From positions 3,744,001 to 3,808,000 of the forward strand of contig OZ242011.1 of NCBI GenBank assembly GCA_965204755.1: a stretch of 64,000 nucleotides of DNA, read 5' to 3'. Under the pieces are notes generated by a model, which saw nothing but the letters and a program-made list of their open reading frames with translations, was not told the DNA's origin and ran no database searches. The number at the start of each line of letters is the position of its first letter. Position 1 is the first letter of the stretch. The stretch is from Candidatus Marinacidobacterium sp. GTDB taxonomy: Bacteria; Acidobacteriota; Vicinamibacteria; Marinacidobacterales; Marinacidobacteraceae. Below, one piece after another: positions 17,654 through 64,000 of this stretch. The position numbers and the translations under genes were made by a program.

Positions 17654-17725
17654 GACAGACGGGAAACGGGCGGGAGAGGCGGGGGACTCGGCCGGAGGGT
17701 GGACGCTTACAGTACCGACGCGCCG

Positions 17726-24000: not shown

Positions 24001-24669
24001 GAGTGGAGCGAGGAGGAGCGGCTGCGGCGGGAGCGGGAGGCGCTCGGCTTCTATTGGCGCGGGCATCCGGCGAAGGCTTACCGGGAGGCGCTCCGCGGCT
24101 GGGTCTCCGGGCCGATCAGCAGCGTGACGAGTTCGGGCGAACAGGAAGTGCGGATCGTGGGGCTCGTGCGGCGGCTGCGGAAACGGACGACCCGCGACGG
24201 CCGGCCCATGGCCAACTTCGCGGTCGAGGACGAGACCGGCCACCTCTCCGTGGTGGTGTTTCCCGGAGAGTGGGAGCACTGTCCGAGCCTCGAACAGGAA
24301 CCGGCGGTCTGCGTCTCCGGGCGGACGCGGAAGGACAGCGGCGCCTCTGCCGACGACCCGCCGGAGATCTCGGCGTCCCGGGTCCTCCTCGCGTCGGCGG
24401 CGCCGTTCGAGTTCGCCCAGCGGGTGGATCTCGAAGTCGCGGATCCGACGGAGGTTCGGCGGAGTCTGGAACTCCTGGTGGGTCGTCACCCGGGGACAGC
24501 GACCTTGCAACTTCGACTGGGGGCGAAGGGGGCCGGGTCGGCGCTGCGGGTGGGCGCCGGCGTTCGCCCGAACGCGGAGTTCGCCGCCGAGGCGATTTCC
24601 GTTCTCGGCCCGGACGCCGTGTGGCTGAACGACCGCCCGCTCCCGTCCTTCGCGCTCCGGTCGGCCTGA
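21076..24669 (+). CDS. dnaE: DNA polymerase III alpha subunit
   Basis: Motifs HLHTHTEYSLLDG, GPGRGSAAGS, PDIDVDF, KMDFLGL, YGFNRAH. Confidence 0.97.
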   Translation: MGVTPPAAARPFAHLHTHTEYSLLDGMSRIPGLVRRAAADGMPAVAITDHGNLIGAFKMHRAAREAGIKPILGCEAYVAPGSRKEKNKDADNQHLVLLAKNETGYRNLLRLTSIAHKDGYHYKPRMDFDLLEEHHEGLIALSACPKGIVPREIVEDGDPLEVAGRYLEVFGKGNYFLEIMDHSPAGEPEGAAARLSGLERRIAEGAIQLSRRTGIPLVGTNDSHYEGRGDARAHDFRLCISTNTTYSSEKRLRFDSEEFYFKSSAEMRKVFASCPEAYANTLEIAERIEDYDLVRKESLLPDFEVPADITLDEHFERSVRDGLAARLEVEAAHGERPPRSDYEARLEVELGVIRRTGYSAYFLIVQDFVRFARRKRIPVGPGRGSAAGSLVAYALGITGIDPLAHGLLFERFLNPDRVSPPDIDVDFCEIRREEVLDYVSEKYGSDRVAQILTLGTLQAKLAVRDVARMLEVPGAEIDRLAKLIPDGVGLEQAFEREPRLKEAVGSDRRLTEIFEIAKRLEGLARNIGTHAAGVVVAPRPLEEVLPLYRDVEPAGGRGAAAAGEGRRRTQFDMKDCEAVGLFKMDFLGLRALTQIEDCARRIEEDPDLELPPGEADAVRAIRDGDFEKVPPDPRAFELFSRADTDGLFQFESSGMRRLLARYRPETLDDLAALNALYRPGPLESGMTDEFVETKRQGRDSRKLDERVRRLFTETRGLIVYQEQVMWAARELAGYSLAQADILRKAMGKKDPAVMAAQEKAFVEGASERGLPRKVAQETFAQIAKFAGYGFNRAHAVGYALVAYVSGWLKALYPVHFMASLLTAQQRSSDKDDRIARTRNSAEERGIRVLPPDLRSSGADARVEKGAVRFGLAALKGVGQPAARAVVEARETLGGVRTLAELLGELDLRAVNRGVLEAFAGAGALDFLGVPRSQVSAAIPQAIRAAQRARARKDEGAQALFGGGGERPADAFAEAPEWSEEERLRREREALGFYWRGHPAKAYREALRGWVSGPISSVTSSGEQEVRIVGLVRRLRKRTTRDGRPMANFAVEDETGHLSVVVFPGEWEHCPSLEQEPAVCVSGRTRKDSGASADDPPEISASRVLLASAAPFEFAQRVDLEVADPTEVRRSLELLVGRHPGTATLQLRLGAKGAGSALRVGAGVRPNAEFAAEAISVLGPDAVWLNDRPLPSFALRSA

Positions 24670-33195: not shown

Positions 33196-36100
33196 TTACC
33201 GCCAACTGCGGGGTTCCTGGGCGCCCCGGATCTCCGGGAACGGCGTCCGGGTCGAGACTCCCGGTTCGAACAGGGCCTCCACGACCAAGTGGGCGGCGCC
33301 CCGTTCCGCTTCGATGCGGCCGGCGGCGCCGAGGAAAGTGCGCGTGCGGGCGAGCCGCCGGTTGCGTCGGAAGACATCGGCCCAGAGGATCAGGTTCACG
33401 AATCCGGTCTCGTCCTCGAGCGTCATGAAGACCACGCCGGAAGCCGTGCCCGGCCGTTGGCGGCAGATGACGATTCCGGCGTAGCGCGCTTCCGCGCCGC
33501 TCGGCAGCGCCGCCACTTCCTCCGCGGTGGGGAAGCCGGCGGCGGCGAGTCGGCTGCGGAGCGGCCGGAGCGGATGGCCGCGGGTGCTGTGGTGTTTCGT
33601 CCGGAGGTCCCAGACGATGGACTCGAAGTCGTCCGGGGAAGGAAGCGGCGGGGACGACTCCCGAAGCAGCGGCCGGCCCGGGGCGGCGCCGGCCGGGTTT
33701 CGGCCGAGCGCTTGCCAGATCGCCTCCCGGCGGTTCGCCGGGCCGAGCCGGTGGAACGCGTCGGCCTCGGCGAGCGCCAGGAGCGCCTTTCGCCGGAGAC
33801 CGGTGCGGCGGGCGAAAGCGGCGACCGAGCCGAAGGGGGCTTCGCCCCGGGCGGCGGTGACCCGTTCGCCATCGGCCTCGCCGAGCCCCTTCACATACCG
33901 GAGCCCCATGCGCACCGCCGGGTCGGGAACCGCCGGGTCGGCGTTCGCATCCAGGGAGCAGTCCCACTCGCTTTCCGCCACATCCACCGGGAGGAATCGG
34001 ACGCCCCGGCGCTTGGCGTCTTCGACGATGGTCGAAGGCGGGTAGAAGCCCATCGGCTGGGCGTTCAGCAGGGCGCAGGCGAACTCCGCCGGGTAGTGGC
34101 AGAGGAGGTACGCGCCGGCATAAGCGATCAGGGCGAAACTGGCGGCGTGGCTCTCCGGGAAGCCGTATTCGCCGAAGCCCCGAATCTGCTCGAACACCCG
34201 CTCGGCGAACTCCCGGTCTATCCCCTTCGCCTGCATCCGGGAGATGAGCCGCGCCCGGTGGCGGTCCATCTGCCCGGTGCGGCGAAAGGCGCCCATGTCG
34301 CGGCGCAATCGGTCGGCTTCCCCCGGGGTGTAGTCGGCGGCCACGATCGCAAGGCGCATCACCTGCTCCTGGAAGAGCGGGATGCCCAGGGTCTTCTCCA
34401 GCACCGGACGAAGCGAGGGATGGGGGTAGTGGATGGGCTCTTCGCCGTTCCGGCGGCGCAGGTAGGGGTGGACCATTCCTCCGGCGATCGGGCCGGGGCG
34501 AACGATGCTCACCTCCACCACCAGGTCGTAGTAGTTGCGGGGGGCGAGCCGCGGCAGCATGGCCATCTGCGCCCGGCTTTCGATCTGGAACACGCCGACG
34601 GTCTCCGCGCGCCGGATCATGGCGAAGGTCTCGGAGTCGTTCGGCGGGAGGTCGGACAGGGAGAGGTCGAGGCCCCTCGACTCCCGGAGGCTTCGGAAAC
34701 ACCGGTCGAGTTGGGTCAGGGCGCCGAGGCCGAGCAGGTCCACCTTGAAGATGCCCAGTTCCTCCAGGTCGTCCTTGTTCCACTGGATGACGGTGCGTCC
34801 TTCCATCGCGGCGTTCTCCACCGGCGACAGCCGACTGATCTCCTCGGCGCCCAGCACGAACCCGCCGGGGTGGATGGAGAGGTGGCGGGGAAACCCCCGG
34901 AGTTCGTCCACCAGTCGGATCAGGTGGCGGACCGCCGGGACTTCCGGCTTCCAGCCGGCGGAGCGCAAGCGGTCTTCGTCCACCTCCTCCCGGTGGGAAA
35001 AGGCGCGGGCCAGGCGGTCGAGCGGCCGCTCGGAAAAACCGAGCGCTTTCCCGACTTCGCGGATCGCCGAGCGCGCGCGGTAACGGACGGTGTTCGCCAC
35101 CATCGCGGCGCGCTCTTCGCCGTACTTCCGGTACGCGAACCGGATGACCTCTTCCCGGCGGGAGTGCATGATGTCGAGGTCGATGTCCGGCGGGGAGGCT
35201 CGCTCCGCCGAGAGGAATCTCTCGAACAGGAGCCCGAGCCGCACCGGGTCCACCGCGGTGATCCCGAGGCAATAACAGACCGCCGAGTTCGCCGCCGATC
35301 CTCGCCCCTGACAGAGGATCTGCCGTTCGCGGCAGAAACTCACGATCTCGTGCATCGTGAGGAAGTACCCGCCGTAATCGAGTTCCCCGATGACGGCGAG
35401 TTCGATTTCGAGTTGCCGGCGCACTTCCTCGGGGACGCCTTCCGGATAGCGGCGCCGGGCGCCGGCGAAAGTCAGTTGCCGCAGCCGACTCGAAGAATCG
35501 GCTCCGTCGGGGAGGTCGGGTTCGGGGTAGCGGTAACGGATCCGGTCGAGGGAGAACCGGCAGTCCTCCGCGATCTCCAGGGTGCGGGCGGCGGGTTCCG
35601 GGGAGTCGGCGAAGAGGGCCGCGAAGTCGGCCGGGGACCTCAGGAAGTGCTCGCCGTTCGGCCGCAGCCGGCGGCCGGCCCGGTCGAGGGTGACCCCGTG
35701 GCGGATGGCGGTGAGCACATCCTGCAACCGGCGTCGTTCGGGCCGGTGGTAGAGCACTTCGGTGGCGGCGGCCAACGGGACCCGGTACCGGGCGGCGCGC
35801 TCCCGCAGCCGGGCTTCGCGCGGCCGGTCGCTGTCCCGCCGGTGACGGGTCAGCAGGAAGTGGAGGCGGGGGCCGAAAGACTCCCGGAGAAGTTCCGCTT
35901 CGCGGTCGGGGGGCGGATCCCGCAGGAGGGAGGAGTCGCCGCCGCCCCAGAGGGCGTGGAGCCCCTCGGCCGAGGCGGCGATCTCGGCGAAGGAGACGCC
36001 TCCGGCGCCTTTTCGGGAACGGGGAGGGGGCTTCCTTCCCGAATCCGCGGAGGGAATCGCCGCCGGCCCCCGCCGCCGGCTGCGGGTGAGGAGGCTGCAG

Positions 36101-36525
36101 AGGTTCCGGTAACCGGTCTCGTCCGCGGCGAGCAGGAGCAGGTGGTCGCGCACCCGGCGCCGTTCTCGTCCGTTTGCCTTTCGGGTTGCCGGGTAGCCGG
36201 CCTCCTTCTCGGAGACCGAGACCTCGGCGCCGACGACCAGGCGGACTCCGAGTTCCCGGGCCCGGGAGTGCGCCCGGACCATTCCATGGACGCCGTCCCG
36301 GTCGGTCAGCGCGATTCCGGGCAGTCCGAGAGCGCGCGCCTCGGCGACCAGTTCCTCCGGGTGGCTGGCGCCGGTCAGGAAGGAGAAGTTGCTCCGGCAC
36401 CAGAGGGGGAAGTAGGACGAGGAACTCGAACCGCGCGCCGCCGGTCGCTCCCCGCTCGGGCCCGGCGACCGGGCGCGCTTTCCGAGAGGGGCTTCCCGGC
36501 CTCCCGGTGCGTTCGGCCCGACTAT
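33196..36525 (-). CDS. dnaE2: Error-prone DNA polymerase DnaE2 (ImuC)
   Basis: Motifs SNFSFLTGASHPEEL, QGRGSAANS, PPDIDLDI, GFPESHAASFA, QRPGTASG, C-terminal RSWR. Start uncertain; in-frame ATA at 36525 overlaps the imuB stop. Confidence 0.93.
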   Translation of the reverse strand: MVGPNAPGGREAPLGKRARSPGPSGERPAARGSSSSSYFPLWCRSNFSFLTGASHPEELVAEARALGLPGIALTDRDGVHGMVRAHSRARELGVRLVVGAEVSVSEKEAGYPATRKANGRERRRVRDHLLLLAADETGYRNLCSLLTRSRRRGPAAIPSADSGRKPPPRSRKGAGGVSFAEIAASAEGLHALWGGGDSSLLRDPPPDREAELLRESFGPRLHFLLTRHRRDSDRPREARLRERAARYRVPLAAATEVLYHRPERRRLQDVLTAIRHGVTLDRAGRRLRPNGEHFLRSPADFAALFADSPEPAARTLEIAEDCRFSLDRIRYRYPEPDLPDGADSSSRLRQLTFAGARRRYPEGVPEEVRRQLEIELAVIGELDYGGYFLTMHEIVSFCRERQILCQGRGSAANSAVCYCLGITAVDPVRLGLLFERFLSAERASPPDIDLDIMHSRREEVIRFAYRKYGEERAAMVANTVRYRARSAIREVGKALGFSERPLDRLARAFSHREEVDEDRLRSAGWKPEVPAVRHLIRLVDELRGFPRHLSIHPGGFVLGAEEISRLSPVENAAMEGRTVIQWNKDDLEELGIFKVDLLGLGALTQLDRCFRSLRESRGLDLSLSDLPPNDSETFAMIRRAETVGVFQIESRAQMAMLPRLAPRNYYDLVVEVSIVRPGPIAGGMVHPYLRRRNGEEPIHYPHPSLRPVLEKTLGIPLFQEQVMRLAIVAADYTPGEADRLRRDMGAFRRTGQMDRHRARLISRMQAKGIDREFAERVFEQIRGFGEYGFPESHAASFALIAYAGAYLLCHYPAEFACALLNAQPMGFYPPSTIVEDAKRRGVRFLPVDVAESEWDCSLDANADPAVPDPAVRMGLRYVKGLGEADGERVTAARGEAPFGSVAAFARRTGLRRKALLALAEADAFHRLGPANRREAIWQALGRNPAGAAPGRPLLRESSPPLPSPDDFESIVWDLRTKHHSTRGHPLRPLRSRLAAAGFPTAEEVAALPSGAEARYAGIVICRQRPGTASGVVFMTLEDETGFVNLILWADVFRRNRRLARTRTFLGAAGRIEAERGAAHLVVEALFEPGVSTRTPFPEIRGAQEPRSWR

Positions 36526-38225
36526 TCGACGCGCCCTTCGAGGAACCAGGAGTCCCGCTCCCGGTCGAAGAAGATCCAGCAGACCTCTCCCCGTTCCAGC
36601 CGGACGAAGTAGTAGTCGCGGGTGATCGGCCGCCCGGAGAGCCGGCGCCACCAGCCGCCGGAAACCCGGTACGGCCCGGCGCAACCGCGGACCGACCCCC
36701 GTTCCAAGGCCCGCCGCAGCCAGTCCCGGGTTTCGGGGCCGCTCGGACCGGGCAGGGGGAGCGGGCGGTCGTAGATCCTCCGGACGAGCGCTCCCGGTTT
36801 CGACTTCGAAACGGGTTCCTGGCAGGGAACGGACTCCGGGCGAACGGGAAAGCGGAAGTTCCCGGGAGGGTCGGCGGAGGCGTCGGGCCGAGTGCCGGGC
36901 AGGGCAGGGGGTGTTTCGATCGCTTCCGTCGGTCCGACCGGCGCGAAGCGGAAACTGGCGCCGGGGAGGTGGGCGCTGCGCGATTCGATCCGCACCAGCG
37001 CGTCCTCCCCGAATTCGGCGCGGAGGGAAGCGAGCGCCTCCGCCGCCGGCTTGCGGTTCCGCCTCACCGCTTCCCGGCCGCTCCGGCCTTCCGGAACGGG
37101 CTTCCGGAGCCCCGGTCGGACGGAGGGATCCTCGAACAGGTTCTGCGGTTCGGACATCTGGAGACCGGCGCGGGCCGAGAGGACCAAGTCGGTCACTCCC
37201 GACGCCTCCCCGGAGCAGGTTTCGGTTCCGATCCGGAGCCGCAGCAGGGAGAGCAGCCGCAAGCCGTCCACCGAAGGGCCGGTCGGAGTCACGGAAGCGG
37301 CGGCGATCCGTCCGTCTTCGCGCCGCAGTTCGTAGGAGAGTTCGAGGACGGCGAGCCCTTCCCGGGTCAGTTCGTCGAGGATCTCGTCCAGCAGGCGCTT
37401 CGCCCGGAACACCAGCCGCTCGTGGCTCGACTCCGGCGGATCGAAAGAGGCCCGGCGCTCCACCGGCGGGTCGGGCCGAAAGACTCGGGCGGCCCGGATT
37501 TCGACTTCCCCGGAAGCGAGGCGGTGCAGGCGGTGAGCCGCTTCGCCGTACCGGTTGCCGAGTCCCCGGCCGGAGAGGCGGAGCAGGTCCTCGAGGCGGC
37601 GGACTCCGAGTTTTTCCAAGTCGGCGAGCAAGGCGTCGGGGAGTCCGAATCGCACCAGCGGCGCCCGGCCGGCGGCCCGTTTCTCCTCGGCGGGAGTTCC
37701 GAAGACCTGTTCACCGAACAGCGCCCGAGCCGCCGCGAAGGCGCCGAAGCGGGAGAAACCGACCGCCGCCGAAGAGCGGAAGCCGATCTGTTCCAAGTCG
37801 CTCCGCAGGGCTCCGACCCAGTCGGAGGGGGCGCCGAACATCGTGGAAAGCCCGGAGGCCCGAAGCCAGAAGGCGCCGACGGCGCCGAACCCGGCGAGCG
37901 AAGGGCGGACCTCCGCCGCGGACTCGACCTGCGGGCTCCAGCGGTAGAGGCGCTCGGCCAGCCGGGCGACCGCCGCCCGGATCTCGGAATCCGTGATCCG
38001 GCCGACCCGGAGGTCGGGGCAGCCGGCGGCGGCCGCCGCCGGACGCATCCCCGGACGGACCCCCTGCCGCGCCGCTTCGCGGTTCACCCAGACGATCGGC
38101 TCCCGGGTTTCGTCGCCGGAAACGACCGCCGCCGGCGCGTCCCGCCAATCGGGATAACGCCGGAGCAGCAGTTGCAGCGGCAGCGCCGGCACATCAACAC
38201 ATGCCAGACATGCCTGCGGGGACAT
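36522..38225 (-). CDS. imuB: ImuB, Y-family polymerase-like accessory protein
   Basis: Motifs VNREAARQGVRPGM, WSPQVE, C-terminal GPYRVSGGWW...RDYY; lies between imuA and dnaE2. Confidence 0.88.
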   Translation of the reverse strand: MSPQACLACVDVPALPLQLLLRRYPDWRDAPAAVVSGDETREPIVWVNREAARQGVRPGMRPAAAAAGCPDLRVGRITDSEIRAAVARLAERLYRWSPQVESAAEVRPSLAGFGAVGAFWLRASGLSTMFGAPSDWVGALRSDLEQIGFRSSAAVGFSRFGAFAAARALFGEQVFGTPAEEKRAAGRAPLVRFGLPDALLADLEKLGVRRLEDLLRLSGRGLGNRYGEAAHRLHRLASGEVEIRAARVFRPDPPVERRASFDPPESSHERLVFRAKRLLDEILDELTREGLAVLELSYELRREDGRIAAASVTPTGPSVDGLRLLSLLRLRIGTETCSGEASGVTDLVLSARAGLQMSEPQNLFEDPSVRPGLRKPVPEGRSGREAVRRNRKPAAEALASLRAEFGEDALVRIESRSAHLPGASFRFAPVGPTEAIETPPALPGTRPDASADPPGNFRFPVRPESVPCQEPVSKSKPGALVRRIYDRPLPLPGPSGPETRDWLRRALERGSVRGCAGPYRVSGGWWRRLSGRPITRDYYFVRLERGEVCWIFFDRERDSWFLEGRVE

Positions 38226-50801: not shown

Positions 50802-51578
50802 GTGGCCGTAACCATCACCGTCGCGAACCAGAAGGGCGGCGTCGCGAAGACCACGACCTCGGTGAACCTGGCGGCGGCCCTCGCGGCGGCCGGACGCGCC
50901 ACCCTGCTGGTGGACGCCGACCCCCAAGCCAACGCCTCGGTCACTTTCCTCGGGCCGGACCTCGAAGGGCCGACGATGTTCGAGGCGTTGACCGACGAAG
51001 CGAAGTTCCGCGACATCATCCGCGAGACGCCGGTGGAGGGCCTGTCCGTCGCCCCGTCCCGCATCTCGCTCGCCCGGCTGGAGCGCCAACTTCTCGGCGA
51101 CCTGGACGCGCACTACCGGCTGCGTGACCGCATCCAGACCACGCGGGGAGAATTCGACTTCGTGGTCGTGGATACGCCCCCGACGCTGGGCATGACCACC
51201 GTGAACGCGATGGTGGCGAGCGACTGGCTGCTCCTGCCGCTGCCCCCGGCCTACTACGCGCTCGAAGGCGCCGACGACCTGCTCGACACCCTCGAGCAGA
51301 TCCGCCGCCGCCCGAACCCGGACCTGGCGCTCCTCGGGGTGCTGATCACCATGGTGGACGGACGGACGCGGATCGCCCGGGATGCCGCTCGCCGGATCCG
51401 CGGCCATTTCGGCAAGGCGGTGTTCCGAACCCAGATCCGCCGCAATGTGCGCCTCGAAGAGAGCCCGGCCTACCGCGAGGACATCTTCGCCTTCGCCCCC
51501 TCGTCCGTCGGCGCCAAGGACTACCGGCGGTTGTCCCGCGAGGTGCTCGCCCGTGTCCAGGCGAACCGGTCTTCCTGA
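50802..51578 (+). CDS. parA: ParA/Soj family ATPase
   Basis: Motifs NQKGGVAKTT, VDADPQAN, DTPP, IRRNVRLEESP. Confidence 0.92.
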   Translation: MAVTITVANQKGGVAKTTTSVNLAAALAAAGRATLLVDADPQANASVTFLGPDLEGPTMFEALTDEAKFRDIIRETPVEGLSVAPSRISLARLERQLLGDLDAHYRLRDRIQTTRGEFDFVVVDTPPTLGMTTVNAMVASDWLLLPLPPAYYALEGADDLLDTLEQIRRRPNPDLALLGVLITMVDGRTRIARDAARRIRGHFGKAVFRTQIRRNVRLEESPAYREDIFAFAPSSVGAKDYRRLSREVLARVQANRSS

Positions 51579-52566
51579 CGCCGTGCGGCTCAAGCCGCGC
51601 GCCGGCCACTATGTGGAAGCCCTCGTCCCGGAGGAGCCGACTGCCGCGTGGCGAATGATTCCGGTCGCGCAGATCCACCCCAACCCGAACCAGCCCCGGC
51701 AGCGGATCGGCCGGCTGGACGCCCTGGTCACTTCCATCCGGGAGCACGGCGTCCTGCAGCCGATCCTGGTGCGGCGGCTGGGCGCCAAGGACTACCAGAT
51801 CATCGCCGGGGAGCGCCGCTTCCAGGCGGCCCGCCAGGCCGGGCTGCGCGAAGTGGCGTGCGTGGAGCGCGAGGCCGGGGAAGGGGAGTCGCTCGAACTC
51901 GCGCTCGTCGAGAATGTCCTGCGGGACGACCTCACGCCGTTCGAGGAGGCTTCCGCCTACGAGTGGCTCATCGAACAGCACGGCCACACCCACGAATCGT
52001 TGGCCCGGCGGGTCGGGAAGCCGCGGACCTCGGTTACCGAGTCCCTGGCGCTCCTGAACATCCCGGAGGGCATCCGCGAGATGTGCGCGGCGGCCGGTCT
52101 CCGGTCCCGTCGGCAACTGCTCCGGATCGCGCGACAGCCGGACGAGGCGGCGATGGCGGCGGCGGTCGAGCGCCTCGCCCGCGGCCTCGAGGCGGAGGAC
52201 GCGGCGGCGTCTTCCGGCCCCGCCGGCGCGACCGCGGAGAAAAAGCAGGAAAAGCCGACTCGACCGAAGCCGTTCGTCTTCCGCTTCGCCCCCCGGGGCG
52301 CGCCCTTCCGGCTGCAGATGACCTTCCGCAGGAGTCGGGTGGACGAGGGCGAGGTCCTCGAGGCGCTCCGCGATTTGGTGCGCCGGTTGGAGGAGTCCTC
52401 CGCCGGCGGCAGTGAGCCCGAGGGGGCGGAGGGAGCCGGGGAGCCCCGGGCGCCGGCTGCCGCGCCCGACGCCGCCGAACCGGGCGCGAACACCTCCCGA
52501 GCCGGGCGGGTCGCCGCTCCGATCCCTACCGCTCCGCCGGCGGTTCCCGAAGGCTCGAAACGCTAG
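51553..52566 (+). CDS. parB: ParB/Spo0J family partition protein
   Basis: Motifs PNPNQPR, GVLQPILVR, IIAGERRFQAA, ALVENVLRDDL, HTH. Confidence 0.9.
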   Translation: MSRRTGLPDAVRLKPRAGHYVEALVPEEPTAAWRMIPVAQIHPNPNQPRQRIGRLDALVTSIREHGVLQPILVRRLGAKDYQIIAGERRFQAARQAGLREVACVEREAGEGESLELALVENVLRDDLTPFEEASAYEWLIEQHGHTHESLARRVGKPRTSVTESLALLNIPEGIREMCAAAGLRSRRQLLRIARQPDEAAMAAAVERLARGLEAEDAAASSGPAGATAEKKQEKPTRPKPFVFRFAPRGAPFRLQMTFRRSRVDEGEVLEALRDLVRRLEESSAGGSEPEGAEGAGEPRAPAAAPDAAEPGANTSRAGRVAAPIPTAPPAVPEGSKR

Positions 52567-56162: not shown

Positions 56163-58664
56163 ATGTCCTTCCGCAGTTTCCTGAAACGCCTGAGCGGCCC
56201 GCTCCGCGCTGTTCCCGTGCGCTTGATGGGCCGCCTGGTCCGCGTCTTCCGACGGGCTGACGGTTCGAGCGGGCCTGCATCTGGGTGTGGAGAGACGGGA
56301 CAGCCGGAGTTGAACGAATCAACGCCGGACAAGCGGTCAACCGGTTCGGAGCCCGCGGGCACTGCTTCCCCGGACATCGAAGACCGAGATGGACCGACGC
56401 CGGGGCGAAATGACGGCAGTTCGCATGCGCCGGCACCCCTGCCCCAAAAGCCGGGGTCGCCCAACGGCGAAGGGCGCGCCGCCGAACCCGAGCCGGAGGC
56501 GGAAGGGACGATGGACATCACACCGCCGGTTGACGAGAGCCATGCCGATGCGGCAACCGGAGGTGCCCTCCCGGACACGCCGACTCGCGAACCCGACGAC
56601 CGTGCTGATCCCGCGTCTGCGGAGCCAAGACCACCGACGGTGTCTCCGCCGCGAGTGACGACCGAGGGGTCGAGGAGAGCGGGAGAACCTTGGAGGTTCG
56701 GACCGCGTCGCACGCAACATGACTCTGCCCTCGGAATCCGAAGTGACGCGGGCGCTTCTCCACCCGAACTCAGGATTCGCTACGCCGGCGGCAGGTGGGA
56801 AGTACTGCTCTCGGTTGACCCGAAAGCAGGCCCGTCCGAAGTGCTGCAAGGTGGGAATCCGCTTCGTCCTGCTCGGGATGGGGCTTGGCGCGTGCCCGAT
56901 TTCCGGCGAGACATCGAGGTAAGAACCGACAACGCTGGCGACGCAACGATACCCCTCTACACAGGAAGAGAGCCGCTTATCTTCCGGCTACCGGGGGCCG
57001 ATGGCGAGGGAACTCAGCGTCGTCGAATGACCGATCGTGGACGGTATGTCGTAATCGCGCCGGCAGGAGAACTCCGCCGCGACGAGATCGCGGTCTTTCG
57101 GGAGCACGAACCCTGTGGCGATCATCGTTTTGTCGCACATTTCTTCGACTCGTCTGCCGGGAGGGGGGCGGAAACGGTCGAGGGTTTCCCGGAGTGGGAC
57201 TACGGCGCTACAACGGGAAGTGCCTCCTTGGCCGGGCGCTCTATTTTCGACAGTTCCGAAGACGGAAAGTTGTTCGTTGGAGACGCGCCGACTTTGGATT
57301 CGACGGACGGAATCAAATGGGCTCGCATCGGTGAAGAGCGAGAGGGTGGGTGGAAGGGACGGAACTTTCTCGTCGCAGAAGAGAAGCCAGGCGATGTCCT
57401 GAACGGGGCATGTGGGAGATTCTTTCTCCGCACATATCGAACGGGGGAGACGCATCTGGCCGACTCGCGATCGTTTCGCTATTGGCCTGACCTGGAGAGG
57501 ATCGAACTCAACGGGAGAAAATTCGACTCGGAGCGCATCCTGATTCCGGGCACAGCGGGGCATGGGAAGGCGACCGTTCGGTTGGTCGGCCGAGTCGGTA
57601 GCGATCTGAAATTCGAACTCATGAACACCCAAGGGGCATCAGTCTCCACCGACGGGACGATTGCGGTTGCTCCGGACATCACGGCAGACGAGTTGCGCGT
57701 GCGCCTTTGCCGCGCTCCGTGGCACATGGATTTGGTCGTCGCCCTGCCGAGGGTCTGGTGGCGGCTGCAAGGAGATCGGAGCAACTGGAAATCTACTCCG
57801 CTCTCCATGTCTCGTCGAGAGTTCCGGAGCATCGCAACTCAGCGGCTTGAGATGCTCGTGCCGGAGTCCATCCCATCCGTCGAAGCCACACTTGGAAGCC
57901 AAATCGGCGAGTTCCCTGCGACGAGAACTGACGAGTCCGTTCACAAACGACTCTGCGCCATTCCTCTTGAGTACTTCGCGGATCACTCTGCCCTTCAAGA
58001 CGCCGGCGCACGGGAAGACGCTACGATCCGCGCCCGACTAAACGGATCGGAGGTGTGCATCATACATGTGCCCCCTGAACGGCCGCGACGAGCACTCAAA
58101 CCCCAATCGTCGCCCGTCCCCGCTCCGCCACACGAGATGCCGGCGACGCCGAGCCGGACGGAGCACACGGTTCTCAAGAACAGCGTGGTCGCCGTAGGTT
58201 GCGTGAGGGTTCGGGAACGCGACAAGAACATCTCCTTCACGGCTATGGCGATCGTCAGCGACGGGAACGGCCGCGTCGGCGTCGGTCATGGAACGGGGCG
58301 CGATGTACCGGCCGCGACCAAGAAGGGAATCGAGATCGCGACGAAGAATCTGGTGTCGGTGCGGCGGCAGGGACGTACTATCGCCCATGAGGTCGTTGGC
58401 GCCTTCGGTGGCGTTCGTGTCCTGATGAGTCCCGCTCCGGAGGGAACGGGGATCGTCGCGCGTAGATCGACGCGGGCAGCGGTGCGGGCCGTCATCGAAC
58501 TGGCGGGGATCAAGGACATCCTGATCCGATCGAGCGGGACTTCGAACCAGGAAAAGGCCGTCGCGGCGGTCGTCGAGGGCTTGCGTTCGCTCCGCTCGCC
58601 AGAAGTCGTAGCCGAATCTTCCGAAAGGGAGACCGGAGAGAGTCTCCCTGAGACGAGGAGGTAG
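56163..58664 (+). CDS. Uncharacterised protein with a C-terminal ribosomal protein uS5-like domain
   Basis: Disordered N-terminus, beta-rich middle region, and residues ~671-818 resembling uS5 (SFTAMAIVSDGNGRVGVGHG..RDVPAA..K, PAPEGTGIVA, VRAVIELAGIKDI). Confidence 0.8.
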   Translation: MSFRSFLKRLSGPLRAVPVRLMGRLVRVFRRADGSSGPASGCGETGQPELNESTPDKRSTGSEPAGTASPDIEDRDGPTPGRNDGSSHAPAPLPQKPGSPNGEGRAAEPEPEAEGTMDITPPVDESHADAATGGALPDTPTREPDDRADPASAEPRPPTVSPPRVTTEGSRRAGEPWRFGPRRTQHDSALGIRSDAGASPPELRIRYAGGRWEVLLSVDPKAGPSEVLQGGNPLRPARDGAWRVPDFRRDIEVRTDNAGDATIPLYTGREPLIFRLPGADGEGTQRRRMTDRGRYVVIAPAGELRRDEIAVFREHEPCGDHRFVAHFFDSSAGRGAETVEGFPEWDYGATTGSASLAGRSIFDSSEDGKLFVGDAPTLDSTDGIKWARIGEEREGGWKGRNFLVAEEKPGDVLNGACGRFFLRTYRTGETHLADSRSFRYWPDLERIELNGRKFDSERILIPGTAGHGKATVRLVGRVGSDLKFELMNTQGASVSTDGTIAVAPDITADELRVRLCRAPWHMDLVVALPRVWWRLQGDRSNWKSTPLSMSRREFRSIATQRLEMLVPESIPSVEATLGSQIGEFPATRTDESVHKRLCAIPLEYFADHSALQDAGAREDATIRARLNGSEVCIIHVPPERPRRALKPQSSPVPAPPHEMPATPSRTEHTVLKNSVVAVGCVRVRERDKNISFTAMAIVSDGNGRVGVGHGTGRDVPAATKKGIEIATKNLVSVRRQGRTIAHEVVGAFGGVRVLMSPAPEGTGIVARRSTRAAVRAVIELAGIKDILIRSSGTSNQEKAVAAVVEGLRSLRSPEVVAESSERETGESLPETRR

Positions 58665-58672
58665 ATGGACCG

Positions 58673-61600
58673 ATGCCCCATCGAAAAGACATCGACCGGT
58701 GGGTCGAGAAGATTCGGTCCCGGTATACGAGTTATCTTGCGACCTCGTTCTACTTTCGTGACCCGGCGCTTCGGAAATCTTTCGGGGACGCGCTCGGTGG
58801 CGAGGAACTGCTTCGTGGCCCGTACCCGGAATACGGGCGCCGCTTCCCTAAGGGAGTCTCCGCCCGAGAGTTGGCCTCCGAGACGTTCCCGAGCGGGGCG
58901 GAGGACCTGTTCCCTGCCCTCTTGGACGGACGCCTCCACGCGCATCAGGAACGGGCGATTCGGGCTGCCCATTTCGAGAATCGGAACATCGTCGTGGCGA
59001 GCGGTACGGCCAGCGGGAAAACCGAGTGCTTCCTCTATCCGATACTGTTCTCCCTCTTCGATGAGCACTTGGCGGGGACCGTCGACGAGAACGGTGTTCG
59101 GGCGGTGGTTCTCTATCCGATGAACGCCTTGGTGAACGATCAGCGGGAGCGACTTGGTGAACTACGCCGAAGGCTGGACGGACACGGGTCCGGGTTTGAG
59201 TTCACTTTCGGTCAGTACATCGGCCAGACCCCCTACAACTCACGAGACAGGTTTCGGCACGGTGCCGAGCGCGGACGAAGCGCTCTGCCGGGAGAGATCG
59301 TTTTTCGAGAGGAGATGTGGGAGAAGCCGCCCCACATCCTGTTTACGAACTACTCGATGCTCGAGTACCTCTTGCTGCGCCCGCAGGACACGCCCCTGTT
59401 CGACGGCGGCAGGGGCAGACACTGGCGCTTTTTGGTTCTCGACGAGGCGCACGCCTACCGGGGAGCCAAGGGCATCGAGATGGCGATGCTCGTTCGTCGC
59501 CTGAAACAACGGTTGAGAGAGGGTGGACGGACGCGGCCGTTTCGGTGCATCGCCACCAGTGCGACGATTGCGTCCGGGCACGGCAGAGAGGATCGCAGGG
59601 CCGTGGCCGACTTCGCGACGACGCTGTTCGGTGAAGAATTCGAGGATGAGGGTGTCGTGTTCGGCCTTCCCGAGAGTCGATCTGGCGCCGAGTCGGGCGA
59701 CATTCGTCGTCACCATGTGTTCGTGAGGGCGCTGGAAGGCGCCTTCCTGCTGCACGAAGAGGGCCGTGACCGCGTCGTCCTGAATCGCGTCCTCGGGGAC
59801 GCGGGATCGAGAGCTCCGGCGGTTCCGCTCGAGATCGCGCTGTGTCGGGAGTGTGGCCAGCACTACTATGTCGGTCGGGTGAGGAACGGGAGGCTGGTCG
59901 AGGCCGTGCGCGACCGTAGTCGTGGAGATTTCGGAGTGGATTTTTTCCGTCCGCTGTCGACGGATGAACCGCAGGCGTCCGGCCTTTCGCTGTGCCGGAG
60001 GTGCGGGGCGATCGGCCGAGGCGCGACCGGGTGCGGTTGCGGTGTGGAGGCAGCCGTTCAGAAGTGTGCGAACCGACCCGGCCATCCGGACCAGATCAAG
60101 AAATGTGGGAGTTGTGAGTACGCCCGCGGCGGCGTCGGGGATCCGGTTCAGGAAATCGTGCACGGCGCCGACGGGCCCAACGCCGTTCTTGCTACTGCGG
60201 TGCATGAACTGCTGCCTTCCGCGTCGAGACGAATCCTGGCGTTCGCGGACAGCAGACAGGACGCGGCCTTCTTCGCGTGGTACGCGGAGGACTCGTACAC
60301 GACGATTCGAGATCGGAATCTCATGGCGAGGGCGCTTCGCCGGGGAACGGAGGGTTGGCGACGAACCGATGAGGGGGGCGACGAAGGGTTGTCGATCGGG
60401 GATCTGGGTCGTCGGCTCGCGGCAGTGCGTCGCGAACGCGGTCTGACGAAGGCCGCCGACAGTTGGGAAACCGAGATCCGGGCGTCCCATGAGGCCGTTT
60501 TGCGGGAGGCCGTCGCCGAGGATGCGAGGTTGTCACTATCCGGCGTGGGACTCGCGGCGTGGGCGGTGGCCATTCCGAGCGACTTGCGTGTTCCGGCCGA
60601 ACTCCTTGCGCCGCCGTGGAATCTCAGTCCGCCGGAGGCTCGTCTGCTGCTTGAGCACCTTCTCGACGGGTTCCGGAGAGAGCCAGCCTTGTGCCTTCCG
60701 AAGTCACCGGATTTCCCGGCATGGAAGGCGGTGAGCACCCGGCCGGCAATGGCGTTCGCGCGCGGAACGCCGGCCGGGAGAACCAAGGTTCGAGAGTGGG
60801 GAGGCGCGCGGAGCGCGGTCGTCAGCCGGTTCCTGCCGCGGGTCGCCGACGCCTCGGGGCTCAGCCTGGCCGCGGCGCAGGTGGCGAGCCGCAGTCTCAT
60901 GAAGGCGATCTGGGTGGCTCTCAGGGATCGCGACGAGGCGGTGCGCGCCGAGGATCGGATGCTCGAACGGGCCGGGTCCGAGGGAACTTTCGCGCTGAAC
61001 AGCGGATGGTTGCGAGTTCGCTCGGCTGGGGCATCGGAATTGTGGGAATGCGAGACCTGCGCGCGTTTGACCGCGCGAAACATCCGAGGCGTCTGCCCGC
61101 GCAACTGGTGCCCCGGAATCCTTGCGCCGGCGGATCGAGGACGGCTCGACGAGAATCACTATCGGTCCCTGTACGAAGCGACAGACCTGCCGCCGACCTT
61201 GAAGGCGGCGGAGCACACGGCGCAGTTGGCGGACGACGAAGCCAGACGACGGCAGGCCGAGTTCAAGAGCGGCGACATCCATCTGCTCAGTTCGTCTACT
61301 ACCTTCGAGGTCGGAGTCGATCTGGGAGCGCTCGAAGTGACTTTTCTGCGAAATGTGCCCCCGGAGCCCTTCAACTACGCGCAACGGGTGGGACGGGCGG
61401 GGCGAGCGGCGCGCACCGGCCTGGCGCTCACTTACTGTCGCCGCAGTCCTCACGATCTGCACCACTTCTCGAATCCGGAGTCCTTGATCGAGGGGCGGGT
61501 TACGCCGCCTCGGCTTCTCGTCTCAAACGAGCGGATCGTTACGCGGCACATGACCGCGATCGCTCTGTCGGCGTTCTTCCGCGACTCGAATCGTGGCCAG

Positions 61601-62953
61601 GGGCTGGGCAGCGTCGAGGAGTTCATCGGTCCGGACTGGCGCCCGGCGTCAGCGCCGGAGGCGTTGCGGCAGTATTGTGAGAGTGATCGGGCCCCGCTCA
61701 CGACACTGCGTAGCGTCGTTCCTTCGGACATGCACGAGACTGTGGGACTTCACGACGGCGGATGGGTCGGACGGATTGCGGGTCCCGAGAGCCGGCTCGC
61801 GCGCGCTGCGGAGGAAGCGTGTGATGAATTCCGGAAACTGCAGGAATTGGTGGCCGATTTCATGAAGACCCGCGACTCCAGAATCAACCGTCTGCATCGC
61901 AGGATGGACACGATCGCGGGGATGAATGTCGTCCAATTCCTCGCGAGAAAAGCGGTCATTCCGAAGTACGGGTTCCCGGTGGATGTCGTCGAGTTGCACA
62001 CCGGTTCTTGGCGTGAGGGCGGGTCCGTGCAACTCGACCGGGATCTTTCCTTGGCCATTTCGGAGTACGCCCCCGGAAGTCGCGTGGTCGCGAATAAACT
62101 CGAGTGGCAGTCGTGCGGTATCCGGAGAGTGGATGGGCGGGAACCGCCTCGGCGACTGTACGCCTACGACCGGCAACGCTTTCTCGCGACGAACCTCGGT
62201 GATGCGGAGGGGCTGGTAGACGGGCACCGCCCCAAGGGCAAGTACTTGGTGCCGGAGTTCGGGTTCGTCGTGTCCGACAAGGAGAAACCGAGGCCTCCGG
62301 AGCGTCGCAGCCAAAGGCTGTTTTCGACTCGTCCCTTCTTCAGGAATTTCGTGCGCACGGAGTCGCTCGTGGCCGAGAGATCCGTCTTTGGCGTGCACGT
62401 GTCGGAGCCGCAGCCCGGTGAACTCGTCGTCCTGTGTGAGGGGAAGGAGGAGGGAGGGTTTCACCTCTGCGGACAGTGTGGCCGGTATGCGGAGAAACCG
62501 GGACCGCAGCACACTACGCCTTGGGGAGGATCCTGCTCTGGGGTCTTCTCCAGGTTCTCGCTGGGGCACGAAGTGACCACGGATGTCGTCAGAGCCCGAT
62601 TCCCGGAAGCGCTGGATGTCGCGGGGCTCTACTCGCTTGCGTACGCCTTGGCGCTCGGCGCTGCGGATGCCCTCGCCGTGCCGCAGCAGGACCTCGATGT
62701 CACCTTGAGTGGCGACGCCATCGTTCTCTACGATGATGTGCCCGGGGGAGCGGGCCTCGTACGGCAATTGACCGACGAGAGGGCGTTTCGCCGGGTGCTG
62801 GTGAAGTCCCGCGAACGCGTCGACGGGCGATGCGGGTGCGACCGTAGTTGCTACGGGTGTCTTCGCAGTTATCGCAACCAGTTCGTTCACACCCAGCTGG
62901 ACCGCGGGAAGGCGCTCGCGGTGCTTGACGAGGCTCTTCGGCGGACCGGCTGA
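58673..62953 (+). CDS. SF2 DEAD/DEAH-box helicase with Zn-finger inserts and C-terminal DUF1998 (DruE/MrfA-like)
   Basis: Motifs HQ, SGTASGKT, YPMNALVNDQ, TNYSMLE, DEAH, ATSAT, FADSRQDAA, TTFEVGVD, QRVGRAGR; several CxxC; C-terminal YDDVPGGAG...CGCDRSCYGCL. Confidence 0.92.
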   Translation: MPHRKDIDRWVEKIRSRYTSYLATSFYFRDPALRKSFGDALGGEELLRGPYPEYGRRFPKGVSARELASETFPSGAEDLFPALLDGRLHAHQERAIRAAHFENRNIVVASGTASGKTECFLYPILFSLFDEHLAGTVDENGVRAVVLYPMNALVNDQRERLGELRRRLDGHGSGFEFTFGQYIGQTPYNSRDRFRHGAERGRSALPGEIVFREEMWEKPPHILFTNYSMLEYLLLRPQDTPLFDGGRGRHWRFLVLDEAHAYRGAKGIEMAMLVRRLKQRLREGGRTRPFRCIATSATIASGHGREDRRAVADFATTLFGEEFEDEGVVFGLPESRSGAESGDIRRHHVFVRALEGAFLLHEEGRDRVVLNRVLGDAGSRAPAVPLEIALCRECGQHYYVGRVRNGRLVEAVRDRSRGDFGVDFFRPLSTDEPQASGLSLCRRCGAIGRGATGCGCGVEAAVQKCANRPGHPDQIKKCGSCEYARGGVGDPVQEIVHGADGPNAVLATAVHELLPSASRRILAFADSRQDAAFFAWYAEDSYTTIRDRNLMARALRRGTEGWRRTDEGGDEGLSIGDLGRRLAAVRRERGLTKAADSWETEIRASHEAVLREAVAEDARLSLSGVGLAAWAVAIPSDLRVPAELLAPPWNLSPPEARLLLEHLLDGFRREPALCLPKSPDFPAWKAVSTRPAMAFARGTPAGRTKVREWGGARSAVVSRFLPRVADASGLSLAAAQVASRSLMKAIWVALRDRDEAVRAEDRMLERAGSEGTFALNSGWLRVRSAGASELWECETCARLTARNIRGVCPRNWCPGILAPADRGRLDENHYRSLYEATDLPPTLKAAEHTAQLADDEARRRQAEFKSGDIHLLSSSTTFEVGVDLGALEVTFLRNVPPEPFNYAQRVGRAGRAARTGLALTYCRRSPHDLHHFSNPESLIEGRVTPPRLLVSNERIVTRHMTAIALSAFFRDSNRGQGLGSVEEFIGPDWRPASAPEALRQYCESDRAPLTTLRSVVPSDMHETVGLHDGGWVGRIAGPESRLARAAEEACDEFRKLQELVADFMKTRDSRINRLHRRMDTIAGMNVVQFLARKAVIPKYGFPVDVVELHTGSWREGGSVQLDRDLSLAISEYAPGSRVVANKLEWQSCGIRRVDGREPPRRLYAYDRQRFLATNLGDAEGLVDGHRPKGKYLVPEFGFVVSDKEKPRPPERRSQRLFSTRPFFRNFVRTESLVAERSVFGVHVSEPQPGELVVLCEGKEEGGFHLCGQCGRYAEKPGPQHTTPWGGSCSGVFSRFSLGHEVTTDVVRARFPEALDVAGLYSLAYALALGAADALAVPQQDLDVTLSGDAIVLYDDVPGGAGLVRQLTDERAFRRVLVKSRERVDGRCGCDRSCYGCLRSYRNQFVHTQLDRGKALAVLDEALRRTG

Positions 62954-63335
62954 ATCGCCCGAATCCGGAGTCGCCCCGATGTCGGAGACGCCGAAGACCT
63001 TGATGCGGGAGGCCGGGATGAGTGGGCGATCGGGTAAGTCGGGGCGCCGGTATGCAGAGGACTACCGGCGGCGGATCGTGGAACTGGCGCGGGCCGGGCG
63101 TACGCCCGCGGATTTGGCCCGTGAGTTCGAGCCGAGCGCGCAGACGATCCGGAACTGGGTGGCGCAGGCGGATCGGGATGAGGGTCGGCGGTCGGACGGG
63201 TCGACGCGGGAGGAGCGGCGGGAGATCCGGGATTTGCGTCGTCAACTGCGGGATCTGAAGGAGGAGGTGGCCGTCCTGAAAGCGGCGCAGTCGTGGTTCG
63301 ATCGGGAGACCGAGTCCGACGGTTCCGATTCCTGA
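62951..63335 (+). mobile_element. IS3-family remnant (degenerate left end plus orfA; no orfB)
   Basis: TGAATCGCCC..TCCGGAG resembles IS3/IS51-group ends. orfA follows, and no integrase-domain ORF is present before the next gene. Confidence 0.65.
63018..63335 (+). CDS. IS3-family transposase OrfA (HTH)
   Basis: RRYAEDYRRRIVELARAG..LAREF..SAQTIRNWV..EIRDLRRQ..LKEEVAVLKAA; GGGAGG RBS. Confidence 0.8.
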   Translation: MSGRSGKSGRRYAEDYRRRIVELARAGRTPADLAREFEPSAQTIRNWVAQADRDEGRRSDGSTREERREIRDLRRQLRDLKEEVAVLKAAQSWFDRETESDGSDS

Positions 63336-63483: not shown

Positions 63484-64000
63484 CTACCGGGTCCAGAGTT
63501 CGTGGAGGGATACGGCGAGGAGGCGGCGGTCGGGGAGGCGGTGGTTCTCGGGGCCGGTGTGGAGGATGAAGCCCCCGGCGAAGTCGTTGCCGCACCGGTC
63601 GGCGAGACGTTGGAGGCCCTTGCCGTCGGTCGGGCGGACGCTCCCGGAGGCCTTCACTTCGATACCCCAGACGCGTTCGTGGCGAGTCAGGACGAGATCC
63701 ACTTCCGCGCCGGCCCGGTCGCGGTAGTGGGACAGGCGCAGGTCGGGGTCGGTCCACGCCGCCTGCGCGGCGACCTGTTGGACGACGAAGGTCTCGAGCA
63801 AGGAGCCGAAGCGGTCCCGGCGTTCGAACCAGTCCGCTTCGGTGATGCCGGAGAGGGTGGCGGCGAGGCCGGCGTCCGCGAGGTGGATCTTCGCGGCCCG
63901 AGCCGGGCGCGGGACCGCGGGGTGGTGCCAAGCGGGAAGGCGGCGGATCAGGAACAGGCGTTCGAGGATGGCCAGGTACCGCTCCACGGTCGCCCGGTCG
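63484..64000 (-). CDS. AAA+ ATPase with DUF4143 domain (C-terminal part; 5' end lies outside the window)
   Basis: Motifs YLAILERLF, AKIHLADAGL, GSLLETFV, YRDRAGAEVDLV, GIEVKAS. Confidence 0.85.
   Translation of the reverse strand, partial: DRATVERYLAILERLFLIRRLPAWHHPAVPRPARAAKIHLADAGLAATLSGITEADWFERRDRFGSLLETFVVQQVAAQAAWTDPDLRLSHYRDRAGAEVDLVLTRHERVWGIEVKASGSVRPTDGKGLQRLADRCGNDFAGGFILHTGPENHRLPDRRLLAVSLHELWTR

Follow-up and report, generated by a model that had tools for sequence, protein, structure and literature searches.

A host-derived, remodelled uS5 domain as the C-terminal tail of a DruE partner protein in Candidatus Marinacidobacterium, with a putative role in a Druantia type III-like system

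Why does a domain of the ribosomal protein uS5 lie outside any ribosomal operon, directly ahead of a gene for a large helicase? This question is raised by a 64,000-nucleotide stretch of a Candidatus Marinacidobacterium genome (contig OZ242011.1, positions 3,744,001 to 3,808,000; hereafter the window, to which all positions below refer unless a locus is named). An earlier note, made from the sequence alone, had placed a degenerate in-frame copy of uS5 there. The uS5-like peptide is present, residue 671 (LKNSVV...) starting at 58173 and SPEVVA ending at 58613, and the homology to uS5 held; the idea of a separate copy did not, since the peptide is part of an 833-residue open reading frame (ORF), P0001 (56163-58664, forward strand), with a disordered head, an array of immunoglobulin (Ig)-like domains and a uS5-like tail. 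The uS5 domain is thus not free-standing, but makes up the C-terminal 148 residues of this ORF and is followed 8 bases downstream, on the same strand, by a gene for a compact DruE helicase. We consider it probable that the tail is a module of a Druantia III-like partner protein and acts as an anchor directed at polyanions or at cellular machinery.

The domain itself is readily identified. The NCBIfam model rpsE_bact (TIGR01021) covers residues 674-821 (58182-58625, forward strand; E 7e-34, 116.9 bits), and both Pfam families of uS5 are significant and above their gathering scores, namely Ribosomal_S5 (PF00333) at residues 682-734 (58206-58364, E 4.7e-12, 46.2 bits against a cut-off of 27.1) and Ribosomal_S5_C (PF03719) at residues 746-819 (58398-58619, E 3.3e-20, 71.7 bits against a cut-off of 21.5). 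An AlphaFold2 model built with 20 homologues keeps the uS5 fold, with a predicted local distance difference test (pLDDT) of about 74-82 over the domain, and the best 50 matches listed for the full model in a Foldseek search of the PDB are, by entry title or context, small-subunit uS5 chains, for example 8cai_E (E 1.2e-12, template modelling (TM) score 0.74 on the target, and 0.7-0.8 across matches). The fold has therefore been kept, as the earlier note had supposed. Its further claim that this is no second rpsE is also correct, because the true rpsE lies elsewhere on the same 3.98-Mb contig (C1:1338279-1338740, 187 residues, 214.4 bits), 2.46 Mb from the tail and adjoining ORFs that, judged by eye, resemble rplR (L18) and rplO (L15). 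The tail falls below the equivalog cut-off of TIGR01021 (164.05 bits), scoring 116.9 bits as a protein and 121.3 bits in a genome scan; it is 56% identical to the genome's own uS5 and differs from its rpsE at 33% of nucleotides, while uS5 orthologues within the genus are 91% identical.

Aligned with the genome's own uS5, the tail retains neither the conserved basic hairpin loop nor the AGG motif of its lineage's rpsE. The loop, which in uS5 contacts 16S rRNA, reads GCVRVRERDK (58197-58226, forward strand) where the host has RVTKVVKGGK, and the host's IAGG is aligned to VARRSTRA (58455-58478, forward strand), in which the AGG motif is altered and four residues are inserted; both replacements had been picked out in the earlier note and both are seen in the alignment. 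The loss of the canonical loop argues that the tail is unlikely to assemble into 30S subunits any longer. Its net charge of +12 (isoelectric point 11.4) equals that of host uS5 (+12, isoelectric point 10.5). Compared with bacterial uS5, then, the tail has the two Pfam domains, the general fold and a strongly basic charge in common, but it sits behind 673 other residues, outside a ribosomal operon, with a sub-equivalog score and with the hairpin loop and the AGG motif replaced.

The origin of the tail was addressed with a tree of 25 rpsE products from the window's relatives and 20 fused domains. All 20 fused domains group with the 16 rpsE products of the window's family, and the branch to the other two families of the order has a support of 94/83; it was from rpsE within the bacterial family to which the window belongs that the uS5 tails arose, in agreement with the capture from the host that had been suspected. 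Resolution inside this group is poor, and a single origin remains compatible with the tree. Identity between fused tail and own-genome uS5 is 91% in genome G007, 84% in G003, 56% in the window's genome (G000), 39% in G016, where most of the N-domain is lost, and 32% in G014. The hairpin loop was lost stepwise: it is canonical in G003, G007, P0013 and P0015, and diverged to RVTEGETGSK in P0010, to ECV-KVRERDK in P0008 and to GCV-RVRERDK in the window's subclade. The four-residue insert is confined to that subclade (five aligned rows, G000, P0003, P0004, P0006 and P0007; P0005, whose tail is identical to that of P0004 in the uS5 tree, is outside the insert alignment), and the G-to-R change in AGG is common to the full-length diverged tails P0008, P0009 and P0010 and occurs also in G014, P0016 and others.

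Selection on these tails can be followed at both ends of this series. The canonical tails are 79-83% identical to one another where the cores are 43-51% identical, and their dN/dS of 0.08-0.13 compares with 0.05-0.08 for real rpsE. The G007 tail matches its own rpsE at 87.7% of nucleotides (dS 0.41), closer than rpsE orthologues are between genera (77-78%, dS 1.0-1.3), which points to recent capture or gene conversion. The window tail is 89% identical to that of P0007, where the core is 74% identical, and 57-68% identical to those of P0008-P0010, where the core is 77-79% identical: in this lineage the tail underwent a burst of change and then came under constraint. Its dN/dS is 0.18 against the G003 tail and 0.29 against its own rpsE, rough values, as dS is saturated (>1) in all comparisons of the window tail. 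No member has a broken reading frame, whether in the close subclade (9 of 9 intact) or among those with a uS5 tail (18 of 18). Because the burst was followed by conservation and the net charge of +12 was kept, the tail is an exapted domain and not a decaying one; neutral decay, which the earlier note had named, beside the lack of a significant uS5 profile match, as an outcome that would undo its proposal of exaptation, is not supported, and that proposal agrees with the replaced loop and AGG motif, the retained fold, the true rpsE elsewhere and the constraint on the tail.

The helicase gene gives the tail its setting. DruE (58673-62953, forward strand) encodes 1426 residues, is matched by the PADLOC models DruE1 (4.5e-139) and DruE3 (7.3e-137), and contains the Pfam domains DEAD (residues 90-300), Helicase_C (842-912) and the MrfA Zn-binding domain (DUF1998, 1322-1397), with a Walker A motif GTASGKT at 59003-59023, a DEAH box at 59441-59452 and a Cys cluster at 62831-62860. 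The protein stops 29 residues past the Zn-binding domain and so has no room for the phospholipase D (PLD) or Vsr nuclease that other DruE types carry, and Pfam recognises no nuclease domain in it. Its best solved relatives are helicases of 2108 and 1970 residues, 9tu7 (E 9.3e-73) and 9wae; YprA (6znp) is a further solved relative. A complex prediction combining DruE residues 330-840 with the Ig-like core of P0001 gave a score of 0.00, which counts neither for nor against binding. In a tblastn search of plasmids with DruE the matches were distant, with at most 31% identity among the 15 records listed.

The pairing of the two genes is not peculiar to the window. A word-indexed search returned 19 homologues of P0001, and a profile search of 1.84 billion representatives returned 3030 matches at E<=1e-3 and 308 at E<=1e-30; the query profile included KH tails, so some of the weaker matches are presumably NusA. 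Scanning one genome per species gave 11 confirmed loci, reduced to 10 when L013, a true NusA matched through its KH domains, was rejected and dropped from all counts. In all 12 related loci, made up of these 10 and of two more genomes from the family of the window, a gene for a homologue of DruE (52-69% identity) follows immediately downstream, on the same strand. Two pieces make up the DruE match in L007 (11793-17252 of that locus, Pseudomonadales) and in L012 (11944-16133, an alphaproteobacterium), where the gene may be frameshifted, interrupted by an insertion or broken; in L011 the contig ends within the match. Carriers in the scan are Vicinamibacteria, Candidatus Marinacidobacterium, Bryobacterales, Paracoccaceae, Pseudomonadales, Candidatus Oxydemutator, Alphaproteobacteria and Candidatus Dadabacteria. 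The full core was found in 2 of 301 genomes sampled evenly from the window's phylum, the uS5 fusion in 5 of 16 genomes of its family, and a scan of metagenome contigs with P0001 gave one locus, L046, a 1.6-kb contig matching the uS5 part alone.

Comparison of the homologues shows that uS5 is one of several occupants of the same position. Of 177 sequences, 171 have a near-complete core and the other 6 were dropped. Among these 171, in a tally that mixes 20 window relatives with the 150 best profile matches and whose proportions are therefore not natural frequencies, 115 end in an eL13-like motif of about 45 residues, recognised with a hidden Markov model built from motif segments. A uS5 tail is present in 18, a NusA S1/KH tail in 5, a CarD-like tail in 3, a bS18 tail in 2 and a bS6 tail in 2; 22 have other tails, of several recurring but unnamed types, and 4 have short or truncated ones. 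The bS6 tails match Pfam over the full profile (6.6e-25 and 8.3e-23), the bS18 tails at 9.3e-21 and 4.3e-13, and the KH tails through KH_5 (2.9e-18), the family profile aligning to solved NusA over S1-KH1-KH2. The CarD label is weak in Pfam (1.1e-4 for one member, 0.06 for another); over a span of about 199 residues, the tail of P0011 is 24% identical to the CarD encoded by the window's genome (E 8.5e-7, the space searched being very small). The default tail, with the consensus ...GKGFSxGELxxAGLTxxxAxxxxIxxDxRRRSxH... and usually preceded by one extra Ig-like domain, is found in loci L005-L008, L010 and L011 and in 109 proteins of the profile search and is absent from the window's protein. Ribosomal_L13e (PF01294), the profile of a eukaryotic and archaeal ribosomal protein, matches 51 of 60 default-tail members at E<=0.01 (best 1e-10), with matches spanning about 40 of 180 profile positions and most scores in the tables seen lying below the 24.9-bit cut-off.

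In a tree of the cores, 17 of the 18 uS5 members, all 5 KH members, all 3 CarD-like members and one bS18 member fall in a single clade with 100% support, which includes Acidobacteriota genomes; the bS6 tails and the second bS18 tail belong to the other core clade. Canonical uS5 members are basal in both halves of the first clade, KH and CarD-like tails each arose once within it, and at least 18 tail changes are needed overall. The C-terminal slot of this Ig-like core family is thus swappable and has been refilled with ribosomal-type or transcription-factor modules. The remaining tails of the first clade also look host-derived, because, in a comparison with proteins of the window's genome, the bS18 tail of P0019 has 85% identity to the rpsR product and the KH tails have 38-50% identity to NusA. 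Extra domains occur elsewhere in some members: P0045 carries a DUF4389 domain at its N-terminus (1.3e-17), and one eL13-type member has a PIN domain (1.4e-5).

The body that carries these tails is mostly beta structure. Residues 200-641 of P0001 (56760-58085, forward strand) form an all-beta core in the AlphaFold2 model, the part that defines the family, joined to the uS5 domain by a linker, and a core-only model with 48 homologues (mean pLDDT 87, predicted TM score 0.72) consists almost entirely of strands. Foldseek matches the core in the PDB to tandem Ig-domain proteins, among them SbsC, Robo1 and the Ig-like domains of PrgB (E 7e-8 to 1e-5), with low TM scores, the domains being oriented differently between proteins. 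Pfam matches in P0001 are limited to the uS5 domains, no family matching the core at E<=1, and an ESM Atlas search of the core gave one match at 0.75, below the useful level. Within the core, the motif EPCxDxxFxAHxF (57108-57146) has C318, D320 and H326 invariant in 20 of 20 sequences and is a possible metal site. Binding of single-stranded DNA (ssDNA) by E. coli DruH, to which P0001 is likened by analogy, is described as better with Zn2+.

Ahead of the core lie a basic amphipathic N-terminal helix (residues 1-31, 56163-56255, forward strand; AlphaFold2 helices 4-8 and 20-30, of low confidence), a Pro/Glu/Ala-rich disordered region (residues 32-166, 56256-56660, forward strand; pLDDT <50 over residues 1-166), whose roughly 135 residues differ in length among homologues, and the motif EPWRFGPRR (56685-56711, forward strand), in which E175, P176, R178, G180, R182 and R183 are nearly invariant in an alignment of 20 sequences. 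The first 31 residues are common to homologue P0011, supporting the start codon. Similar N-termini, rich in Trp and Leu and then basic, occur in P0011, P0013, P0015, P0016, P0018 and P0019. This N-terminal part (56163-56711) could be a membrane or DruE docking element.

How might these parts work together? Druantia III consists of DruH and DruE (10.64898/2026.05.12.722862; 10.64898/2026.05.12.724681; 10.64898/2026.05.13.724758; 10.1101/2025.09.15.676423; PMC13316683), and from homology with the tested systems of that type we infer a defence function for P0001 and its compact, nuclease-less DruE, which would together form a two-gene, Druantia type III-like anti-phage system. The Ig-like array would be the sensing or scaffolding part. 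The family's C-terminal slot holds a small basic RNA-binding module of ribosomal type, with the eL13-like one as the default; the window's module was copied from the rpsE of the window's bacterial family, lost the canonical hairpin loop and gained an insert, and kept fold, charge and purifying selection. Having left the 30S subunit, the tail would serve as an anchor to a polyanion (RNA or ssDNA) or to cellular machinery, and in so doing would position or gate the Ig-like sensor, which in turn would control where or when DruE unwinds phage DNA. Most likely, then, the tail is a nucleic-acid- or ribosome-directed anchor, or a bait, on a DruH-like sensor, although any more exact statement of what it binds is speculative.

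Several observations weigh against this reading. The evidence for defence consists of DruE homology and gene order, and neither P0001 nor DruE has a recognisable nuclease. The equivalence of P0001 to DruH is drawn by analogy: P0001 matches no PADLOC family at E<=0.01, nor does any of 20 family members at E<=10; the YjiT-type Pfam family has no match in P0001; and the family profile, run against all PDB sequences, found only NusA (through the KH tails), weakly bS18, and noise, with no DruH-like chain. The conservation of the canonical tails is far stronger than generic nucleic-acid binding would demand, which fits ribosome docking or bait better, and the saturation of dS and the mixed make-up of the tail tally, both mentioned above, count on the same side. 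Of less bearing are two further results: the PADLOC DruH3 model found nothing in the genome, but it also matched no control genome and is hence weak evidence, and the Foldseek search of the PDB library (to April 2026) with the core returned no DruH chain among its matches, which has no bearing on kinship. By every sequence test run, in none of which a III-B DruH sequence was compared, the partner appears to belong to a family distinct from DruH.

A bolder possibility, which we regard as unlikely but worth keeping in view, is that this Druantia-like system is wired, physically or informationally, to the host's transcription-translation machinery through captured uS5, bS6, bS18, NusA and CarD. 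bS6, bS18, NusA and CarD have recognised positions on the ribosome and RNA polymerase. The captured parts might then dock sensor and helicase onto ribosomes or RNA polymerase at work on phage genes or, alternatively, might bait phage proteins that hijack them, much as plant integrated decoys do; the window's remodelled uS5 would be a bait or anchor freed from ribosome assembly. uS5 itself is placed at the mRNA entry (10.1101/2020.03.01.971028).

Either half of this proposal may be taken by itself as a competing explanation. If the tail were an integrated bait, it would mimic the free host protein, and a phage factor engaging it would switch on the Ig-like partner and DruE. This agrees with the use of host gene-expression proteins as tails in the uS5/KH/CarD-like/bS18 clade and for bS6, with near-copies of the carrier lineage's own protein (uS5 84-91%, bS18 85%), with a constraint on canonical fused uS5 equal to that on rpsE (omega 0.08 against 0.076) and beyond generic RNA binding, and with the closeness of the G007 tail to its own rpsE (87.7% of nucleotides, dS 0.41), as re-matching to the host would give. 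Phage T7 kinase is also said to phosphorylate ribosomal protein S6. DruH, moreover, has been argued to be a phage sensor under positive selection (10.64898/2026.05.12.724681). Yet mimicry of a host protein is impossible for the most frequent tail (115 of 171) if that tail lacks a host counterpart, and the window tail, at 56% identity to host uS5 and with its surface loops lost, would be a poor mimic. To our knowledge eL13 has no bacterial counterpart; nor do we know of a phage factor directed at uS5, for which no search was made. As an account of the tail in general, we judge the bait quite improbable. Still less probable is docking on the ribosome, by which fused uS5, in its canonical forms at least, would replace uS5 in some 30S subunits, so that the Ig-like array and DruE would be suspended at the mRNA entry, the place of contact between RNA polymerase and ribosome, and the bS6, bS18, NusA and CarD tails would attach nearby on the same transcription-translation machinery. 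In canonical fusions the hairpin loop and the AGG motif are in place, the charge is preserved and identity across the whole domain is 79-91%; the uS5c of Chlamydomonas sits at the mRNA entry with some 485-510 residues ahead of its conserved domain (PMC13684679), and in the expressome uS3, uS4 and uS5 border the depression that RNA polymerase approaches (10.1101/2020.03.01.971028). The window tail, however, is without the canonical loop and has its insert beside the AGG motif, the tails of G014 and G016 are 32-39% identical to host uS5 with most of the N-domain gone in G016, and a normal rpsE is kept in every genome examined. The default tail likewise has, as far as we know, no site on the bacterial ribosome, and its want of a bacterial ribosomal counterpart speaks most strongly against bait or docking as a general rule; the two would apply mainly to the canonical tails.

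Two more prosaic explanations deny the tail any function. In one, a fragment of rpsE was fused in frame by chance and is drifting, and the score under the rpsE cut-off, the lost loops, the long branches relative to rpsE (0.53 + 0.41 against a median of 0.045) and the cutting of the domain to its C-terminal half in P0016, P0020 and P0025 could all be read in this way. But the frames are intact throughout, within the subclade conservation is higher in the tail than in the core, omega is below 0.3, the fold is confidently predicted with its charge preserved, and where uS5 was lost it was replaced by another folded domain (NusA-KH or CarD-like) and not by nothing, which leaves this explanation with hardly any probability. 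In the other, a ribosomal gene was misjoined to an unrelated gene in a metagenome-assembled genome, and the genome does resemble a metagenome assembly, with a completeness of 89%. Such a chimera is refuted, the same architecture being found in relatives (5 of 16 family genomes and eight database relatives, P0003-P0010, each on 1 or 2 contigs) and the tail differing from the genome's rpsE too widely to be a misjoined copy.

The anchoring module thus remains our preferred reading. In the surroundings of the two genes, GC content falls from about 0.72 to 0.63 over 56-62 kb and returns to about 0.70-0.75 past a transposase gene, an IS3-type OrfA-like helix-turn-helix fragment (62925-63335, forward strand; Pfam HTH_Tnp_1 7.8e-10) that overlaps the DruE stop. 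The same-genus locus L004 is syntenic in its flanks on both sides, at 73-83% nucleotide identity, and has the same two genes in the same slot, at 65-69%. Because of the GC dip, a module less alike than its flanks and the transposase fragment at its edge, P0001 and DruE probably occupy an acquired or variable slot. Upstream neighbours are a flavin reductase and a PEGA-domain lipoprotein, and no transfer RNA gene was found in the 64-kb window. Downstream, an AAA_14/DUF4143 ATPase (63484-64000, reverse strand) continues at 484-1770 of L047 and is followed there by a HATPase_c_4-domain protein; a counterpart to part of this stretch is found in the genome of the same genus (at 64897-65405 in window coordinates), suggesting that a small slot here is variable.

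A few other features of the window lie apart from the module. A ParB-like protein (51382-52566, forward strand; ParB_N 1.7e-26, HTH_ParB 4.4e-15), encoded 3.6 kb upstream of it, lies in the flank where synteny with the same-genus genome holds. Two DnaE-type genes for the DNA polymerase III alpha subunit lie 9 kb apart, the first (21076-24669, forward strand) with an OB-fold and a full PHP domain, the second (33196-36684, reverse strand) with no OB-fold match and a partial PHP domain; the second may, on these domain matches, be an error-prone copy of DnaE2 type. An ORF of 1809 residues (13583-19015, reverse strand) has a HAMP and a histidine-kinase ATPase domain, both C-terminal; its first ~1500 residues have no Pfam match at E<=1e-5, and its start is uncertain in GC-rich DNA.

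What the locus offers is a natural experiment, in which one sensor scaffold and one helicase are combined with exchangeable tails of known biochemistry. Some of these tails are fresh host copies and others are remodelled, and the role of the C-terminal domain can be tested by tail swaps. How Druantia detects infection and what its partner proteins do are debated in the 2025-2026 Druantia papers, where DruH figures as ssDNA binder, sensor of phage proteins, scaffold and weak nuclease. Duplication, fusion and exaptation of an essential ribosomal protein can also be seen clearly in this locus, with intermediate stages in related genomes. PADLOC 2.0 misses the partner, and such loci are probably annotated as incomplete or as orphan DruE. 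While Druantia III is known, no description of the partner family, with the ribosomal and transcription modules that it has captured, was found in the literature searched: the main texts of the 2025-2026 Druantia/YprA and defence-modularity papers that were searched, supplements not covered, make no mention of ribosomal proteins, and full-text searches gave no report linking Druantia with ribosomal protein S5, none joining integrated decoy, anti-phage and ribosomal protein, and none joining L13e, bacterial defense system and helicase.

Among known systems, the nearest is Druantia III, and in particular its III-B branch. The likeness lies in two co-directional genes, with one partner directly upstream of a DruE that has DEAD, Helicase_C and DUF1998 domains. 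The pair is flanked by housekeeping genes (flavin reductase, PEGA lipoprotein) and a transposase fragment. The window's DruE ends without a PLD or Vsr nuclease, as most of the III-B branch is reported to do (10.1101/2025.09.15.676423), and in this it differs from III-A, which has C-terminal PLD nuclease domains. The DruE of Mycolicibacterium smegmatis, of 1667 residues and annotated with helicase and DUF1998 domains only, pairs with a DruH and defends, and that system needs the DruH-DruE interaction (PMC13316683). Unlike the partner in Druantia III, that of the window belongs to a family with ribosomal-type C-terminal modules.

DruH itself is described as a member of the YjiT family, faster-evolving than DruE and with weak, dimer-dependent nuclease activity (10.64898/2026.05.12.724681), and is said to be without annotated domains in a further report (10.64898/2026.05.13.724758). 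The window's partner is similarly large and rich in Ig-like domains, and between two same-genus genomes it is 51% identical where DruE is about 69-70% identical. The DruH of E. coli (III-A) is likewise Ig-like-rich, and its reported ssDNA site lies between the fifth Ig-like and the C-terminal domains (10.64898/2026.05.12.722862), near the end where the P0001 family has its basic modules; both proteins thus have an Ig-like chain and a C-terminal domain. However, E. coli DruH, as described from cryo-EM structures (10.64898/2026.05.12.722862; 10.64898/2026.05.12.724681), has a globular, J-like N-terminal domain as well as alpha/beta domains, where P0001 has a disordered head and an all-beta core, and the two have no detectable sequence similarity. 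A uS5 domain behind a very long N-terminal extension is also seen in the chloroplast uS5c of Chlamydomonas (PMC13684679). That protein, as described, is a resident ribosomal protein with a canonical core, whereas the domain in the window has undergone remodelling and is tied to a defence helicase. Finally, plant nucleotide-binding leucine-rich repeat immune receptors carry integrated decoy domains that copy host proteins and are interchangeable; the likeness to the P0001 family, which goes no further than analogy, is that of an immune protein with an extra copy of a host protein.

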